In this document: one piece after another, positions 2,184-8,474 of the stretch
Position numbering within the stretch: the first letter of the stretch is position 1
Layout: every line of letters starts with the position of its first letter
Source: Breznakia sp. PF5-3
Lineage (GTDB): Bacteria > Bacillota_I > Bacilli_A > Erysipelotrichales > Erysipelotrichaceae
DNA: 8,474 bases
Assembly: GCF_029504745.1 (NCBI RefSeq)
Contig: NZ_JAQFIQ010000067.1
Span: forward strand, 1-8,474
Reading direction: 5' to 3'
Translations under genes and position numbers: made by a program
Notes under the pieces: generated by a model
Database searches by the model: none
What the model was told of the DNA's origin: nothing
Seen by the model: the letters and a program-made list of their open reading frames with translations, nothing else

Positions 2184-2876
2184 TTATTTTATTTTTATCA
2201 TTTCAACATTAATTACATCATATCTTTTCCCAGTCTCATCATCCATAAATGATAATCTAGATCTTAATTTTTGATCATATTTATAAGAATTAAACTCTAC
2301 TTGATGGGCAAGCTTACTTTCTAATACTGCTGGATCTTCTCTCGATGGCTCACAAAGAATAGACCTACTCTGCTTATAACTCATTTCAACATTTGATTGA
2401 ATTGTTGAATATTTATACCTTTCTCCATATAAATTCATACTTATATAATTTGAATCTATCTCAATTCGATATTCGCTTTTAATCTTAGATAATTTTTTAT
2501 AAAACTGAGGATAATCTTCTTTCTTAATTGATGTTCTCCATCCTTCACTATCCATTGTCGTCACTTTATCTATTTCTACATCATCTAAATTTATCTCATA
2601 AACACCACTGACTGCAGTATAAAATTTTTTCTTCTGATCCTCATCTAATATAATATATACTGTTAGAGGGGTATCTTTTTGATTCTCTGTTAAATTGATT
2701 TTTTGTTTATTATATTCAATATAACTTATATTTTCTTCCTTAAATGTTTTCTCATCATCAACTTTTTCTTGTTCTTTGTTATCATCCTTTGGAGGGTCTT
2801 TTTGATCATTTTCACCACATCCAACCAATAACAAAGTACTCACTATTATAAACTTTTTTACTATTTCCTTTTTCAT
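2184..2876 (-). CDS. Predicted lipoprotein, paralog C; candidate orphan or extra immunity protein
   Basis: 230-aa ORF starting MKKEIVKKFIIVSTLLLVGC (lipobox Cys20). It is colinear with B without gaps, with 68/230 differences by hand count. Conserved blocks include GVYEINLD, DSEGWRTSIK, DYPQFY, YGERY, CEPSRxDPAVLES, FNSYxYDQKLR and SFMDxETGKRYD. The SD-like GAGAGGA lies upstream. Confidence 0.8.
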   Translation of the reverse strand: MKKEIVKKFIIVSTLLLVGCGENDQKDPPKDDNKEQEKVDDEKTFKEENISYIEYNKQKINLTENQKDTPLTVYIILDEDQKKKFYTAVSGVYEINLDDVEIDKVTTMDSEGWRTSIKKEDYPQFYKKLSKIKSEYRIEIDSNYISMNLYGERYKYSTIQSNVEMSYKQSRSILCEPSREDPAVLESKLAHQVEFNSYKYDQKLRSRLSFMDDETGKRYDVINVEMIKIK

Positions 2877-2879
2877 ATT

Positions 2880-2954
2880 TTAATTAATCCTCTCTTCCTC
2901 TTGTTCATGATATCTTATCTTCTGCATAGTTGTTATGAATCTATACGAGATTTC
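2880..2954 (-). pseudogene. Ghost 3' end of a toxin gene upstream of lipoprotein C
   Basis: The minus-strand translation is *EISYRFITTMQKIRYHEQEEERIN*. It resembles the 3697-3768 ghost and, more distantly, the rhs C-terminus ...IRIMREGIYEHEGKRF*. It is bounded upstream by TGA (2955-2957) and has no toxin body. Confidence 0.45.
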
Positions 2955-2996
2955 TCATCTAGTGTTATAAATATTTTAAAGGTTGTCAATCACCAT

Positions 2997-3689
2997 CTAT
3001 TTTATTCTGACCATTTCAACATCAATTACATCATATCTTTTTCCTGTTTCAGCATCCATAAATGACAATACTGTTCTTAATTTTTGATCATATTCATAAG
3101 AATTGAATGTTATGTAATATATAGTATTACTTTCTAATACAGCTGGATCCTTTCTTGACGGCTCACAGACAATAGATCTACTTTGTTTATAATTCATTTC
3201 AATATTTGACGGAACTGTTAAATAGTTATATCTTTCCCCATATAAATTCATGCTTACATAATTGAAATCTATCTCAATTTGATATTCACTTTTAGTTTCA
3301 GATAATTTTTCATAAAACTGAGGATAATCTTCTTCCTTGATTGAGGTTCTCCATCCTTCACTATCTATTGCTATTACATTGTCCATTTCTACACTATCTA
3401 AATTTATCTCATAAACTCCACTAACTGCAATAAAAAAGCTTTCCTGCTGCTCATAATTTAACATTAAAATAGATGTTAGATGTGAATTTCTTTGCTTTTC
3501 TGTTAAAATGATTTTTTGCTTATTATATTCAATATAACTTATATCATTTTCCTTAAATGTTTTCTCATAGTCAACTCTGTCCTGTTCTTTGCTATCATCC
3601 TTTAGAGGCGTTTTTTGATTACTTTCACCACATCCAACCAATAGTAAGGCACTCGCTACTATGAACTTTTTTATTATCGATTTTTTCAT
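2997..3689 (-). CDS. Predicted lipoprotein, paralog B; candidate orphan or extra immunity protein
   Basis: 230-aa ORF with the same signal peptide and lipobox as A; the first 67 codons are nucleotide-identical. It is colinear with A without gaps, with 33/230 amino-acid differences by hand count. The same spacer and SD context as A precede it. Confidence 0.8.
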   Translation of the reverse strand: MKKSIIKKFIVASALLLVGCGESNQKTPLKDDSKEQDRVDYEKTFKENDISYIEYNKQKIILTEKQRNSHLTSILMLNYEQQESFFIAVSGVYEINLDSVEMDNVIAIDSEGWRTSIKEEDYPQFYEKLSETKSEYQIEIDFNYVSMNLYGERYNYLTVPSNIEMNYKQSRSIVCEPSRKDPAVLESNTIYYITFNSYEYDQKLRTVLSFMDAETGKRYDVIDVEMVRIK

Positions 3690-3707
3690 ATTTTAATTAA
3701 AACCTCT
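3489..3707 (-). repeat. 219-nt perfect direct repeat, copy 2 (partner 4428-4646)
   Basis: See the partner feature. This copy covers codons 1-67 of lipoprotein B plus the spacer and the ghost toxin stop with its flanking bases. Confidence 0.9.
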
Positions 3708-3768
3708 CTCACTCATGTTCATGACATCTTATATTATGCATAATTGTTATGAATCTATACGAGATTTC
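3697..3768 (-). pseudogene. Ghost 3' end of a toxin gene upstream of lipoprotein B
   Basis: The minus-strand translation, in the frame homologous to the rhs stop, is *EISYRFITIMHNIRCHEHE*ERF*. Compare the real rhs C-terminus ...EEEIRIMREGIYEHEGKRF*. It has an internal TGA (3709-3711) and is bounded upstream by TAG (3769-3771), so it cannot be functional. Confidence 0.5.
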
Positions 3769-3792
3769 CTATACTAGTGTTATCAACATTTG

Positions 3793-3837
3793 AAAGAAAC
3801 AGATTGATTATTATTAATATCATCAATCTGTTTCTTT
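3793..3837. terminator. Perfect 16-bp-stem hairpin (13-nt loop) in the A-B junction; possible terminator or attenuating stem-loop
   Basis: aaagaaacagattgat (3793-3808) is the exact reverse complement of atcaatctgtttcttt (3822-3837). It lies about 100 nt downstream of the lipoprotein A stop. The stem is AT-rich. No U-tract follows on the minus (coding) strand; only an A/T-rich tail follows on the plus strand. The hairpin is absent from the otherwise homologous B-C junction. Confidence 0.35.
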
Positions 3838-3935
3838 ATATTTTAAACGTTGTTAATCACCATCTATATTATTCAATGCATGTTAAATTTTTTCAAAAAT
3901 TGTTAGATTCTTTTCTATTAAACAATCATATCACA

Positions 3936-4628
3936 CTACTTTATTTTGACCATTTCAACATCAACTATATTATATCTTTTTCCTGTTTCAGCATCCATAA
4001 ATGACAATACTGTTCTTAGTTTTTGATCATACTCATAAGAATTGAACGTTATATAATATACATATTTACTTTCTAATACGGCTGGATCTTTTCTCGATGG
4101 CTCACAGACGATAGAACCTCGTTGTTTGTAACTCATTCTTACATTTGATGGAACTGTTGAATAGTTATATCTTTCTCCATATGAAATCATGCTTACATTA
4201 TTGGCATCTATCTCAATTTGATATTCACTTTTAGTCTTAGATAATTTTTCATAAAACTGAGGATAATCTTCTTCCTCGATTAATGAACTCCTTCCTTCAC
4301 TATCTATTGCTATTACATTATCCATTTCTACGCTATCTAAATTTATTTCATAAACTCCACTGACTGCAATATAAAAGCTTTCCTGTTGCTCATAATTCAA
4401 CCTAAAATTATCTTTTGGTTTTAACTTTCTTTGCTTTTCTGTTAAAATGATTTTTTGCTTATTATATTCAATATAACTTATATCATTTTCCTTAAATGTT
4501 TTCTCATAGTCAACTCTGTCCTGTTCTTTGCTATCATCCTTTAGAGGCGTTTTTTGATTACTTTCACCACATCCAACCAATAGTAAGGCACTCGCTACTA
4601 TGAACTTTTTTATTATCGATTTTTTCAT
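3936..4628 (-). CDS. Predicted lipoprotein, paralog A; candidate cognate immunity protein for the lysozyme-like Rhs tip
   Basis: 230-aa ORF. The N-terminus MKKSIIKKFIVASALLLVGC has a positive n-region, a hydrophobic core and an LVGC lipobox (Cys20). The ATG at 4626-4628 lies 7 nt after the rhs stop. The SD-like AAGAGG (4642-4647) sits inside the last rhs codons. The mature part belongs to no family I can name. Confidence 0.8.
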   Translation of the reverse strand: MKKSIIKKFIVASALLLVGCGESNQKTPLKDDSKEQDRVDYEKTFKENDISYIEYNKQKIILTEKQRKLKPKDNFRLNYEQQESFYIAVSGVYEINLDSVEMDNVIAIDSEGRSSLIEEEDYPQFYEKLSKTKSEYQIEIDANNVSMISYGERYNYSTVPSNVRMSYKQRGSIVCEPSRKDPAVLESKYVYYITFNSYEYDQKLRTVLSFMDAETGKRYNIVDVEMVKIK

Positions 4629-4646
4629 ATTTTAATTAAAACCTCT
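4428..4646 (-). repeat. 219-nt perfect direct repeat, copy 1 (partner 3489-3707)
   Basis: A base-by-base comparison finds it identical to 3489-3707. It covers codons 1-67 of lipoprotein A, the 7-nt spacer, the rhs stop codon and the last 8 nt of rhs coding sequence. Identity breaks at 4647 (t) versus 3708 (c), and at 4427 versus 3488. Confidence 0.9.
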
Positions 4647-7600
4647 TTCCCTCATGTTCATAGATACCTTCTCTCATAATTCTAATTTCTTCTTCTCTTC
4701 TTTTTACTAGACCTCCTAGCTCAGTCCCACCATCTCCATATTTAATATTTCTAAAACTCTGATCAACTTCACCATATCTTCCATCTTTTTCAAAGACTAA
4801 TATCTCATAAATATAGGCTCCCCCTCCATTCATAGCAAGACTAGTATAAGCATCAAATACATTCTGCTTTAACTGAAACTTTAACTCTTGCATATTTGCA
4901 TTAACTATTCCTTCAAATGTCAATAAATCCTCGCGTAAAATTGCATCCATTTGTTTTTCAGTCAACGGGTTTTTATATATATTCATAAAAGCATCTTGTT
5001 CTTCTTGGGTAGTAAAATGGTGTCCGTATCCTATTGTTCCGAATTGTTCTCCTCTTACATAATAAAGTTCAGGTTCTCTTCCTTCCACTGCTTTAATATA
5101 CTTAATCATTTTATTTGATACTTTCATATTTTTTATAACAACAGAATTATTATCTTTTACTTTATTATTATCATTATTTTTTTGATCATTCTTCTTTTTC
5201 TCAAGACATTCTAATATAAATTTAGCAATATCAGTTATAAATCCACCCCAGTCTTTTCCCTTTCCAGGATTTGGATTCGGATTCGGCTTTGGTTTTGGTG
5301 TTTTTGATTGATTGTTTTTAGGAGTGGTTACTGCTTTTTTAGCTTGCTCTATTAGCCATGCTGCTAATGCCATTGTCTTCTGTGCCACATTCTTTTTCTG
5401 ATTTTTTAGTTTTTTCTCGAATGCCGCCCTTGATAAATGAGCCCATTTACTAGCAAAGTTTTCTGCCCATGAATTCCCATCCCTATCCACATACTTATAA
5501 GGGTTAGATAAGGTGTAGTTATACCGATTCTGTGTTCCTACATCTTCTTTCTCTCCTGCATAGTTGTTATCTATCTGTATGAAGTTTCCTATACTTGGAT
5601 CATAATATCGAGCTCTTAAATATATTAACCCTGTTTCTTCTTTATGCTCTCCATTGTAATAGTGTCCTTCTCCATGTTTACTATACCCATAATCACTATA
5701 ACTTGCAAGTTTTACTTTATCCCCTTTTACCTCTGCTACCACACTGTTATTTAGTCCTGCTACTTGGGTAACACCATCCTCTTCTACAATCGATATTCCA
5801 TATACATTACTCTTTCCATCTTTCTCTAAGATTTGAGTATATTCTTGATTGCGATCTAAGGTATAAATGGTTACTTCTGGTTCTTTCTTGTATGTAGATG
5901 GATAAGACGCACTTAGTACTTCCTCACATACATCTCCATTCGCTTTTTTCTTTCTTACTTGATCTCTTAAGATATCAAAGCTATCTTCTACTTCTTTTTC
6001 ACTCACTTCATCAAATTCCAACGATACTGTATAGTCATACCATAATGTCATTGGATACTCTCTGATATCGCTCTTTACTTGTTTTACTCGCTCTCCTTGT
6101 GCATCATATGTGTAATCATACACATATGCTCCCTTTTGTAGCTGTGTCAGTTGGTCATTCTCATCATACGTATACACTTCATTACTTCCATCTTCTTTTA
6201 CCTTATTCTTTAGATTTCCGTTTTCATTGTAATAGAAAGAAATCGTTCCTTTGTCACTTTCGATTGTTTCCAATTGATTACGATCATTGTATTTATATGT
6301 CTTCTTACCTTCACTACTTGATGTAACTGTCTTATTACCATGTAAATCGTAACTGTATTTGGTTGTTACTTTCTTTCCATCGACATATTTATTACTTTCT
6401 AATAATTCATCTGCTTGATTGTATTTATACGTATTTGTCTTTCCATTGATTACTTCTTTTACGAGGTTGTTATTGGCATCATAACTCTTACTTGTTGTAT
6501 GAATTGCTTTTCCACTCTTCGTTGTATCTTTTTTGATTAGGTTTCCATTGTTGTCATACCCATAAATAGATACTACACTTCCTTGGGTTACTTTTGATAC
6601 TTCTCCTCGAGCATTGTATTCATACGCTGCTACTGTCGCATCATTCTTTTTCACACTCTTTAATAGATTATATGAGTTATATGCATACTTTACTAAATCC
6701 CCATTGGCATAGGTAATGGTACTTAGCTTTTTATCTTTGTTATAAGTATACTGTACTTCTTTTTGGTTGGTATCTTTCACGGATACGATTTGATCAAAAG
6801 CGTTGTATTTATACGTAATTGTTCCTGCCTTGTTCTTAGCACTTATTACATTATCTCTTGCATCGTATTTATACGTATCATTATTTCTTTGTACCATGTT
6901 GTTGTTGGCATCATACTTATATGTAATCTTACTTCCATCTGGTTTCGTATAACTTGTTTTATTTCCATATACATCATATGTATAGAAATGTTTATACTTA
7001 TATTCATTGTACTCTGATGTTAGGTTGTTTTGACGATCGTAGTTATAGATCGCATATTTCCCATTTAAATCTTTGGTGATTACATTATTGTTTCCATCGT
7101 ACACATACGATACCACTCTTCCATGAGGGTTTTGTGCTTTCAATAAGTTATTGTTTGCATCATATTCATAACGATATGTAACCCCTCTAGCATTGGTTGT
7201 GGTAATCTCATTATTATTTCCATCATAGGTTTTTGTTTCCTTGTTTCCATTACCATCTTCAATAACTAATGCATTTCCACTTTCATCATAGGTAACCTTT
7301 TGGACACTCTTCATACTACTTCCATCCGTAGATGGTAGTTTTAATTCTACTGGTCTATTTAGTTTATCATATACGATTTCTTTGCTTAGATTATGTTCTG
7401 TTACTTTAACTTCATTGCCATTGGCATCATATACTTTGTTTAGTGTTTCTTTACCATTGGTTTTTACGCTTACCAAACGTGATAGTTCATCATATGTATA
7501 TTCTTCTACATAACTACCATTTTCACTCTTCTTAAGCAATTCGCCATACACGTTATAAGTAGATACACTCTTGTATCCTTTTTCATTACTGCTTTTTTGA

Positions 7601-8474
7601 TTACCAAAAATATCATAAGTATACGTAGATTTCGCAAATCTTGCATCATACGATGTAACCAATTGATTGTATTTGTTGTATTCATTCTTTTGCGTGATAC
7701 GAGTATTTGTCTTTGTTTCTACTAGATTCCCTTTCTTATCATAGGCATTGCTAAGAACTTTATTTCCATTCTTCTCTTTTGTGACATTTCCTAATACATC
7801 ATAGGTTCTAGTTGTTTTATATCCTCTTCCATCACTTTCTTCAATTACTTGTCCATATGCATCATAGGCATACGTTTTTGTATTTCCATTACCATCAATT
7901 TCTTTTACAGCTTGGTTCTTGTCATTGTATTTTAAATAAGAACTATTTCCTAATTTATCTACAACTTCCACCAACCGACATTCATCATCATAAACATAGG
8001 TAATAGCAAATCCTCTTTGATCGATTTCTTTCGCTACTTGTCCATACTCATTGTATAGCGTTTGTTCACTATTTCCATTCGCATCGATTACCTTTGTGAC
8101 ATTCCCATTTGCATCATATTCATTTTGGGTTGTATTTCCTAAAGCATCGATTTCTTCCACAACTTGATTTTTTTTATCGTATACCTTCTTTATCGTATTA
8201 CCAAGAGCATCTTTTTCTTCAATGATATTGCCATTGGCATCATATACCGTCATTGTTTTTTGATTTCGATTAATATCTTGTTCTTCAATTACTTGATAGT
8301 TAGCATCATAGATATAAACAACTTCTTTTTCAGCTACTTTTTCTTTTACTTTATGATGAAGTTCATCATATTCATTAACCGTTTTCAATCCCAATTCATT
8401 GGTTGTAGAAACTACATTTCCATATTTATCATAGGTATTCTTTATCGTTCCTTTGTAGCTTGTTGTTTTTACTA
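4636..8474 (-). CDS. Rhs/YD-repeat polymorphic toxin, 5'-truncated by the window edge, with a C-terminal GH24 lysozyme-like toxin domain
   Basis: The track ORF is 4636..8394, but its 'M' is a TTG codon (8392-8394) and the frame stays open to the window edge. Translating 8395-8474 gives ...VKTTSYKGTIKNTYDKYGNVVSTTNE, which continues the YD repeats. Dozens of YD-type repeats are present (xYxYDxxGNxx, e.g. VYDANGNIIEE, NEYDANGNVTKV, TYAYDAYGQV). The Rhs-associated core ends with ETGLIYLRARYYDPSIGNFIQID...NRYNYTLSNPYKYVDRDGN and is followed by a 278-aa variable tail. Stop TAA is at 4636-4638. Confidence 0.92.
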   Translation of the reverse strand, partial: VKTTSYKGTIKNTYDKYGNVVSTTNELGLKTVNEYDELHHKVKEKVAEKEVVYIYDANYQVIEEQDINRNQKTMTVYDANGNIIEEKDALGNTIKKVYDKKNQVVEEIDALGNTTQNEYDANGNVTKVIDANGNSEQTLYNEYGQVAKEIDQRGFAITYVYDDECRLVEVVDKLGNSSYLKYNDKNQAVKEIDGNGNTKTYAYDAYGQVIEESDGRGYKTTRTYDVLGNVTKEKNGNKVLSNAYDKKGNLVETKTNTRITQKNEYNKYNQLVTSYDARFAKSTYTYDIFGNQKSSNEKGYKSVSTYNVYGELLKKSENGSYVEEYTYDELSRLVSVKTNGKETLNKVYDANGNEVKVTEHNLSKEIVYDKLNRPVELKLPSTDGSSMKSVQKVTYDESGNALVIEDGNGNKETKTYDGNNNEITTTNARGVTYRYEYDANNNLLKAQNPHGRVVSYVYDGNNNVITKDLNGKYAIYNYDRQNNLTSEYNEYKYKHFYTYDVYGNKTSYTKPDGSKITYKYDANNNMVQRNNDTYKYDARDNVISAKNKAGTITYKYNAFDQIVSVKDTNQKEVQYTYNKDKKLSTITYANGDLVKYAYNSYNLLKSVKKNDATVAAYEYNARGEVSKVTQGSVVSIYGYDNNGNLIKKDTTKSGKAIHTTSKSYDANNNLVKEVINGKTNTYKYNQADELLESNKYVDGKKVTTKYSYDLHGNKTVTSSSEGKKTYKYNDRNQLETIESDKGTISFYYNENGNLKNKVKEDGSNEVYTYDENDQLTQLQKGAYVYDYTYDAQGERVKQVKSDIREYPMTLWYDYTVSLEFDEVSEKEVEDSFDILRDQVRKKKANGDVCEEVLSASYPSTYKKEPEVTIYTLDRNQEYTQILEKDGKSNVYGISIVEEDGVTQVAGLNNSVVAEVKGDKVKLASYSDYGYSKHGEGHYYNGEHKEETGLIYLRARYYDPSIGNFIQIDNNYAGEKEDVGTQNRYNYTLSNPYKYVDRDGNSWAENFASKWAHLSRAAFEKKLKNQKKNVAQKTMALAAWLIEQAKKAVTTPKNNQSKTPKPKPNPNPNPGKGKDWGGFITDIAKFILECLEKKKNDQKNNDNNKVKDNNSVVIKNMKVSNKMIKYIKAVEGREPELYYVRGEQFGTIGYGHHFTTQEEQDAFMNIYKNPLTEKQMDAILREDLLTFEGIVNANMQELKFQLKQNVFDAYTSLAMNGGGAYIYEILVFEKDGRYGEVDQSFRNIKYGDGGTELGGLVKRREEEIRIMREGIYEHEGKRF
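4660..5121 (-). other. GH24 (T4/phage-type) lysozyme-like toxin domain of the Rhs protein
   Basis: Residues ~1092-1245 read SNKMIKYIKAVEGREPELYYVRGEQFGTIGYGHHFTT...PLTEKQMDAILREDLLTFEGIVN...LKQNVFDAYTSLAMNGGG...GGLVKRREEEIRIM. This matches the GH24 signature blocks EG..x..Y.D..G..TIGYGH, iTexqAxxlLxxDl, QxxALxSfxFNxG and GLxxRRxxE. The candidate catalytic Glu is E1104 (codon 5083-5085) and the Thr26 equivalent is T1120 (5035-5037). This is motif recognition only; no HMM was run. Confidence 0.8.
5122..5472 (-). other. Post-core linker: predicted helical segment followed by Pro/Lys/Asn/Asp low-complexity spacers
   Basis: Residues 975-1091 read SWAENFASKWAHLSRAAFEKKLKNQKKNVAQKTMALAAWLIEQAKKAVTTPKNNQSKTPKPKPNPNPNPGKGKDWGG...KKKNDQKNNDNNKVKDNNS. 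The PKPKPNPNPNP stretch (within 5254-5325) is encoded by imperfect hexanucleotide repeats (ggatttggattcggattcggctttggttttgg on the plus strand). I recognise no domain here. Confidence 0.5.
5473..5661 (-). other. C-terminal end of the Rhs-associated core domain, including the boundary (autoproteolysis-type) motif
   Basis: Residues ~912-974 of the track ORF read YNGEHKEETGLIYLRARYYDPSIGNFIQIDNNYAGEKEDVGTQNRYNYTLSNPYKYVDRDGN. This matches the canonical ...TGLyYxxxRYYDPxxGRFxxxDP...NxYxYxxNNPxxxxDPxGL pattern. The final motif is DRDGN (5473-5487) rather than DPxGL. Confidence 0.8.

Follow-up and report, generated by a model that had tools for sequence, protein, structure and literature searches.

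A tandem array of three lipoprotein genes behind an rhs gene with a lysozyme-like tip in Breznakia: candidate cognate and orphan immunity proteins

Toxins of the Rhs/WapA type are built from YD/RHS repeats, a core and a variable tip, and the gene for the immunity protein lies directly downstream of the toxin gene (PMC3482391), an arrangement that recurs in the locus described here. The catalogue of Zhang et al. 2012 contains no GH24 tip, Tox-Glucosaminidase (PF01832) being its only entry among the lysozyme-like folds, and immunity by a lipoprotein is treated there as an exception (Imm65) (PMC3482391). The closest precedent, by analogy, is the TelC-TipC pair of Streptococcus intermedius, in which an LXG toxin of the T7SS (type VII secretion system) acts on lipid II, a cell wall precursor, and is countered by a membrane-anchored immunity protein; several tipC paralogues are present per operon, and TipC2, which was tested, did not protect against the resident toxin (PMC6193138). 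Exported cognate immunity proteins are also known for the pesticin-like muramidase effectors, as in the pairs TssI2-TsiI2 and VgrG3cp-TsiV3cp (PMC9620997, PMC9927483), and the T4 protein Spackle (gp61.3) inhibits the gp5 tail lysozyme domain (PMC7677548). Here we analyze a whole contig of 8,474 bp from Breznakia sp. PF5-3 (Erysipelotrichaceae; GC content ~28-30%), hereafter the window, which corresponds to the 3' end of a polymorphic-toxin locus of the Rhs type from a Gram-positive gut bacterium. Behind an rhs gene with a lysozyme-like tip, it carries three tandem genes, here called A, B and C, for lipoproteins of 230 amino acids (aa). Judging from position, predicted compartment, scars of rhs in front of B and C, purifying selection combined with a hypervariable loop, and strain restriction, we think it rather probable, and by no means certain, that A provides the cognate immunity against the lysozyme tip, with B and C as orphan immunity proteins. 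All genes discussed (A, B, C, rhs and a downstream island) are on the minus strand, which the first-pass annotation of this DNA had not stated, and all window coordinates below refer to features on that strand.

The candidate cognate gene A is located at 3936..4628, and the two candidate orphan genes are at 2997..3689 (B) and 2184..2876 (C), the latter being the most divergent (67% identical to A). The first-pass annotation had described three colinear open reading frames (ORFs) of 230 codons each, and these indeed align without a gap; its hand counts of 33 amino-acid differences between A and B and 68 between B and C were reproduced, and we add 77 between A and C. Over the 230 codons the three tandem copies are pairwise 67-86% identical, far above chance. 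Each copy starts with MKK, a hydrophobic stretch and LLLVGC, so that a basic n-region and a hydrophobic h-region precede LVGC at residues 17-20, which matches a strict lipobox pattern ([LVI][ASTVI][GAS]C) with Cys20 as the putative lipidation site; the mature lipoprotein has a single Cys. The blocks listed earlier as invariant (GVYEINLD, DSEG, DYPQFY, YGERY, CEPSRxDPAVLES, FNSYxYDQKLR and SFMDxETGKRY) were all found. The start codon of A (4626-4628) lies, as had been noted, 7 nucleotides (nt) past the rhs stop codon (4636-4638), and a Shine-Dalgarno sequence (AAGAGG) is present within the final codons of rhs, at a rather long spacing of 13 nt from the ATG of A. Hence, A occupies the position of an immunity gene, on the same strand as the toxin gene, 7 nt past its stop and with its ribosome-binding signal inside rhs codons. 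The compartment is also the one expected, since LVGC with Cys20 predicts export and lipidation, and the GH24 tip belongs to a peptidoglycan-targeting class. The rhs junction and the lipobox in all three copies therefore agree with the immunity position and the surface anchoring that had been proposed.

The gene in front of A is the 3' part of an rhs toxin gene (4636..8474), identified by matches to RHS_repeat (E 8e-76), YD_repeat and RHS_core. Its reading frame is open up to the contig end, with no in-frame stop between 8394 and 8474, and the Rhs N-terminus and export signal are therefore missing from the window; amino-acid numbering of Rhs starts at the TTG at 8394. Pfam and NCBIfam profiles recognize 17 RHS_repeat stretches, Rhs_assc_core and a C-terminal Phage_lysozyme domain in this ORF, and the gene thus shows the RHS/YD repeats and the core before a variable tip that define the Rhs class. 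The Rhs-associated core (aa 899-973, 5476..5700; TIGR03696, E 3.8e-12) ends in ...PYKYVDRDGN, which marks the usual transition from conserved core to variable tip. Next comes a basic, partly low-complexity linker with an isoelectric point of 10 (aa 974-1089, 5128..5475), which leads to the GH24 / Phage_lysozyme domain of the tip (aa 1102-1236, 4687..5091). The tip matches PF00959 above the gathering cut-off (54.7 bits, cut-off 22.3; E 1.6e-14), and its sequence matches in the PDB are GH24 lysozymes, namely 9kbq and 8b2s, the latter being named 'GH24 family muramidase'. The nearest relatives are phage-type lysozymes of ~197 aa with at most 38% identity, and a scan of the GTDB genomes returned no close relative of the core end plus tip. 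The catalytic residues were examined in an alignment of the tip with five phage-type homologues and T4 lysozyme (T4L), with E11, D20 and T26 of T4L as reference triad; of this triad, the tip retains the Glu (aa 1104) and the Thr (aa 1120). On these sequence matches, we consider the predicted GH24 fold of the tip sound.

The spacers in front of B (3690-3935) and C (2877-2996) each contain a fragment of the Rhs core end that is fused to the last codons of the tip, a feature that had been overlooked in the first-pass annotation. The last 33-57 nt of both spacers repeat the end of rhs (...IMREGIYEHEGKRF and the stop codon), the Shine-Dalgarno sequence and the 7-nt junction. Before B, the first part of the scar (3737..3780) is homologous to rhs 5557-5600, which encodes DPSIGNFIQIDNNYA, and the second part (3690..3736) comprises the last ~11 tip codons (...YEHE.KRF and the stop), the Shine-Dalgarno sequence and the 7-nt junction; the final stretch of this scar differs from the rhs/A junction at 2 positions. 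The scar before C (2877..2966) has the same two parts, with the core end at 2923-2966 and the tip end plus junction at 2877-2922. When compared with rhs 5557-5600, the 44-nt core-end block is identical at 34/44 positions before B and at 30/44 before C, values that were reached in 0/1000 shuffles (maximum 29 for B and 28 for C; mean 23.9, standard deviation 1.1). The scar is ~90 nt long, and ~295 tip codons are missing from it. At both breakpoints, the intact rhs gene has a short motif of similar sequence (TATG..AGAGAAGG), which suggests that the tip was lost by deletion between short repeats. The deletion junction is identical before B and before C, indicating that the deletion occurred once and that the scar and the gene were then duplicated together. 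Since the core end and the tip end are fused in front of B and C, the lipoprotein gene has travelled within an rhs tip module. As read from these fused ends, the lipoprotein genes are thus parts of rhs tip modules, like those in orphan toxin-immunity cassettes. The three paralogues, 67-86% identical and with B and C placed behind scars, show the polymorphism and the orphan copies of an immunity gene, and the scars strengthen the earlier proposal that B and C are putative extra immunity proteins.

There are further signs of recombination between the copies. The first 180 nt are identical in A and B, and the identity extends into the junctions (4449-4662 compared with 3510-3723, including the ~33-nt junctions, with 2 differences), whereas the remainder of the two genes differs at 62 nt positions; this argues for recent gene conversion or recombination between copies. 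In the A-B spacer, moreover, the 3' terminus of a lipoprotein gene survives as a remnant together with the downstream flank (3838..3874), which is 92% identical to 2971-3007. Next to this remnant, and only in the A-B spacer, is a perfect 16-bp hairpin (3789..3837, -19.2 kcal/mol), which is absent from the B-C spacer, homologous in other respects, and which may be a terminator, an attenuator or inserted sequence. The hairpin was not called by the terminator pattern scan, and the promoter and terminator scans performed no better than on shuffled sequences, with 0 terminators called.

A, B and C are all intact ORFs under purifying selection, with ratios of non-synonymous to synonymous substitution rates (dN/dS, Nei-Gojobori) of 0.34 for A/B, 0.36 for B/C and 0.39 for A/C. 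It follows from the intactness of the copies and from these values that they are maintained, and not decaying, genes. Variation is concentrated in a hypervariable loop at aa 67-76 (A, 4401..4430; B, 3462-3491; C, 2649-2678), a candidate specificity determinant whose differences between A and B amount to 11 non-synonymous changes, with no synonymous one; it should be noted that the variable patches, including this one, were picked after inspecting the alignment, which biases the Fisher p-values obtained for them, and no weight is placed on these. The only window of the alignment in which the ratio of the proportions of non-synonymous and synonymous differences (pN/pS) exceeds 1 in all three pairs is aa 61-80, with values of 2.5, 1.3 and 1.1. 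Copy A has 16 private changes, and three of them (S116L, Y144N and N148I) are at positions at which B, C and the outside relative described below agree.

The first-pass annotation could not place the mature domain in any named family, and our profile and structure searches, which returned no credible match, lead to the same result. Searches of Pfam, NCBIfam, PHROGs and PADLOC gave only sub-threshold matches, to the signal peptide or to a charged linker, and a profile of the mature domain had 0 matches among all PDB sequences at E values up to 10. No sequence similarity was found, among PDB, Pfam and NCBIfam entries, to the known lysozyme inhibitors (Ivy, MliC/PliC, PliG, PliI and Spackle) or to the immunity proteins Tsi3 and TipC. 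Two candidate families were rejected: PepSY (PF03413), which scored 16.3 bits, below the cut-off of 24, and matched 1/4 members only, and, for A and B, OapC / Zn-ribbon, which scored 18.7 bits against a cut-off of 23 with a match in the charged linker of proteins that have a single Cys. The protein entries of A (P0001) and B (P0002) bear the NCBI name 'putative nucleic acid-binding Zn-ribbon protein', which probably stems from this sub-threshold OapC match in the linker and which the sequences, with their single Cys, do not support. A word-indexed search of 5.8 billion proteins returned the three paralogues only, and one relative, P0032, was added when 1.84 billion representative proteins were searched exhaustively with an HMMER profile; a broadened profile and searches of JGI metagenomes, GTDB species genomes and IMG/VR yielded none beyond it. 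P0001 has four NCBI accessions, under 'unclassified Breznakia', and the family ranges over four near-identical Breznakia isolates and one metagenomic relative, which makes it nearly an ORFan. Immunity families are often strain-restricted and close to ORFans. An AlphaFold2 model built with three sequences was unusable, with a predicted local distance difference test (pLDDT) score of 44; with four sequences, pLDDT rose to 62.7 and the predicted template modeling (pTM) score was 0.59, and a mixed alpha/beta structure is predicted.

The relative P0032 is a protein of 187 aa (E 5.9e-21) that has the YGERY, CEPS and FNS motifs in common with A, B and C, and its IHGC motif is outside the strict lipobox pattern. 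It comes from the SRA runs SRR22859383/84 (L001, 7172-7735; L002, 78-641). The genes upstream of it encode a Zip transporter, an HTH_11/3H regulator, a PDDEXK_1 nuclease and a UvrD-type helicase (addB/addA-like), and those downstream a 345-aa membrane protein without a family and then a helix-turn-helix (HTH) regulator. Its neighbours fall into singleton clusters.

Taken together, these observations are compatible with the following scenario, in which export and lipidation of the lipoproteins, their binding to and inhibition of the tip, the specificity of the individual copies, and the tip's muramidase activity are inferred from the sequence. Once released, the GH24 tip would attack neighbouring cells from the outside, at their peptidoglycan. 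Lipoprotein A, translated presumably from the rhs transcript 7 nt past the rhs stop, would be exported and lipidated at Cys20. A charged linker of ~40 residues would tether it to the outside of the membrane, where it could bind the tip in the wall zone and block it, so that the producer and its sibling cells are protected. B and C would go back to a core-tip-lipoprotein module that lost its tip in a single deletion, the scar and the gene being subsequently duplicated. Selection keeps both copies intact, plausibly for protection against related tips that competing strains carry. Specificity would reside mainly in the hypervariable loop at aa 67-76. Binding to the tip is the mode of action that we consider most likely for all three proteins, as judged from their sequences.

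Several observations weigh against this scenario. First, the Rhs N-terminus is missing, and delivery of the tip to the outside is hence assumed. Second, the tip has a Val (aa 1113, nt 5056-5058) in the column of the catalytic Asp, which is Asp in 6/6 of the other sequences; in gp5, the catalytic residues are Glu184 and Asp193, and Asp193 corresponds to the T4L D20 column (PMC7677548). Of the earlier assignment of the tip as a lysozyme, the GH24 homology (PF00959, PDB matches) therefore holds and the catalytic Asp does not, and classical muramidase activity is not assured; as far as can be read from its sequence, the tip may be weakly active or work by a different mechanism. Lysozyme-fold lytic transglycosylases need a single Glu only, which makes such an altered mechanism possible. 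Third, the tip and the lipoproteins are both acidic, and charge complementarity between them is absent. Fourth, Foldseek gave no credible match for the four-sequence model (best E 0.53 with a TM score of 0.14 in the PDB, best E 0.1 in BFVD, at a query pLDDT of 62.7); by its own confidence scores, the model is too weak for calling the fold new. Fifth, a toxin gene was not seen in the 7 kb upstream or the 1.5 kb downstream of P0032, so that the co-occurrence survey, if taken literally, leans towards homologues elsewhere never being linked to toxin genes, which the first-pass annotation had set down as a refutation of the pairing, with this one homologue as the sample (n=1). It is the sole observation that speaks against an obligatory link to a toxin, and orphan immunity genes are common. 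Finally, the scars of B and C record one former tip module, not two.

Some of these points fit an explanation in which the lipoproteins are unrelated to the toxin and form a lineage-specific surface family, with a role in, for example, adhesion, nutrient capture or the wall, that was amplified in tandem within an rhs island. The housekeeping context of P0032, with no toxin gene, agrees with it, as do the absence of a match to any immunity family or fold and an overall dN/dS of ~0.35, which is unremarkable. However, the 7-nt coupling and the scars show that the lipoprotein genes were duplicated together with the core end and the tip end of rhs. Moreover, no exported candidate for immunity would then exist directly downstream of the tip: the products of the DUF6980 and DUF4304 genes in the downstream island have no signal-peptide-like N-terminus (judged by eye only), and a 118-aa lipoprotein is encoded 2.6 kb further on. 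We therefore regard this explanation as unlikely.

The loss of the catalytic Asp bears on another possibility, namely that the lipoproteins confer immunity without inhibiting an enzyme, by occluding or altering the wall substrate or by blocking docking or entry of the Rhs tip. It would fit the same position, localization and scars, the toxic activity of a tip without the Asp is maybe not that of a classical muramidase, and neither charge complementarity nor any likeness to known lysozyme inhibitors speaks for an inhibitory complex. The characterised immunity proteins of wall-degrading effectors, however, bind their toxins directly, as in TelC-TipC, TssI2-TsiI2 and Tse3-Tsi3, and a hypervariable loop on a constrained scaffold fits protein-protein specificity better. 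Immunity of this kind is, in our estimation, distinctly unlikely. A role as toxin accessory factor, that is, as surface tether, maturation factor or chaperone, could be derived from MafA, which would serve Neisseria MafB in this way: the lipobox protein MAFA is linked to a polymorphic toxin and was proposed to be an anchor (Zhang et al. 2012, PMC3482391), and the Breznakia lipoproteins are likewise predicted to be surface-anchored and co-transcribed with rhs. MAFA, however, is encoded upstream and is not polymorphic (PMC3482391), whereas the lipoproteins are encoded downstream, are polymorphic and include orphan copies that lack a toxin, a pattern that marks immunity genes and not accessory factors; we hold the accessory role to be very unlikely. 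Phage defence or superinfection exclusion by co-opted, Spackle-like inhibitors of the GH24 lysozymes of phage tails or endolysins is hardly credible, for although the nearest relatives of the tip are phage-type lysozymes and Spackle is a precedent for an exported GH24 inhibitor, no relatives were found in PHROGs (apart from the signal peptide), PADLOC, IMG/VR contigs or BFVD structures, and the window is without phage genes.

The remainder of the contig looks like the debris of a recombining rhs immunity island. Past C, the order is a DUF6980 gene, the gene for the 118-aa lipoprotein, a DUF4304 gene and a decayed rhs fragment. The DUF6980 gene (1751-2076), identified by profile, carries a frameshift within a stretch of seven A (1888-1894), which splits it in two: the ORF at 1849-2076 covers profile positions 2-63 and the overlapping ORF at 1751-1909 covers 60-99, and the joined product of 108 aa matches the full profile with E 3.4e-42. 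The split could reflect a pseudogene, a homopolymer sequencing error or slippage. The 118-aa protein (1187-1543) is an acidic ORFan lipoprotein of no family with the lipobox LIGC; it is unrelated to A, B and C (hhalign probability 0.4%), and from its sequence it could be another exported immunity protein. A stretch of 36 nt (1011-1046) that ends at the first base of the DUF4304 start codon recurs at 82-117 with 78% identity, and the junction reads ...VPADLLNKRK followed by a stop that lies 1 nt ahead of the ATG. This resembles another repeated stretch joining a tip end to an immunity gene (1011-1046 / 82-117), and would suggest that DUF4304 is the immunity gene for a different, lost tip. No literature was found in which DUF4304 or DUF6980 is documented as an immunity family. 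The decayed rhs fragment (215-323) contains in-frame stops and is 84% identical to rhs 6134-6242 (aa 718-754), a repeat that could explain why the assembly ends near there.

How much of this is new depends on the level of description. The arrangement of cognate and orphan immunity genes is known, and the logic of the system is standard. The new part is narrower, and consists of a lipoprotein family without known relatives and a GH24 tip on an Rhs scaffold, which is absent from the 2012 catalogue (PMC3482391). The first-pass annotation had also held that the known proteinaceous lysozyme inhibitors are not directed against the T4/GH24 type; this is contradicted by T4 Spackle (PMC7677548) and by the immunity proteins of the pesticin-like effectors (PMC9620997, PMC9927483). 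The larger proposal, that the 230-aa lipoproteins are the first GH24-specific lipid-anchored inhibitor family, possibly with a new fold, that they and the tip constitute the first wall-degrading toxin-immunity pair on an Rhs protein from a Gram-positive bacterium, and that the loop at aa 67-76 sets specificity and separates the cognate A from the orphans B and C, is put forward tentatively; on the sequences we give it slightly less than an even chance. If confirmed, the lipoproteins would add a new protein family to the few inhibitors of phage-type (GH24) lysozymes, and the locus would provide a Gram-positive Rhs case of a wall-degrading toxin with surface-anchored immunity beside TelC-TipC. 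GH24 enzymes are under development as enzyme antibacterials, and a natural inhibitor would thus be of some practical interest. The reach of the finding is limited by its distribution over four near-identical isolates and one metagenomic relative and by the standard logic of the system. Within this range, the locus offers a clean, small example of how an orphan immunity array originates, by tip deletion, duplication and gene conversion.

Comparison with the described systems places the locus between several of them. The inhibitors of animal lysozymes, such as the lipoprotein MliC, are also exported or lipid-anchored and shield peptidoglycan from lysozymes, but their targets are the c-, g- and i-type lysozymes of animals and they are not linked to toxins; built mainly of beta-sheets, they reach into the active site of the enzyme with a loop (PMC7677548). 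Spackle has in common with the predicted inhibitors of Breznakia that an exported protein is directed against a GH24/T4-type lysozyme domain coming from outside. It differs in being a 75-aa helical bundle that is soluble, periplasmic and phage-encoded, whereas the Breznakia lipoproteins have a mature part of ~210 aa, are predicted to be alpha/beta and lipid-anchored, and are chromosomal; no similarity in sequence or fold between the two was found in the PDB, BFVD and PHROGs searches. [quoted passage not shown] These systems, however, are Gram-negative and periplasmic, their immunity families are unrelated, and they have no tandem arrays with rhs scars. TelC-TipC shares with our locus the Gram-positive host, a toxin active outside the membrane, a tethered, wall-facing immunity protein encoded directly downstream, and arrays of paralogues. 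However, TipC is held by an N-terminal transmembrane helix, whereas the Breznakia lipoproteins use a lipobox; TelC is a lipid II phosphatase on an LXG scaffold, whereas the Breznakia tip is a GH24 domain on an Rhs scaffold; and TipC was not returned by Foldseek with the Breznakia lipoprotein model. Finally, displaced downstream modules keep a piece of the core in the orphan cassettes of Rhs/WapA-type toxins (PMC3482391), as they do in Breznakia, where, in contrast, the orphan tips have been almost wholly deleted and a ~90-nt scar is left in front of each orphan gene.

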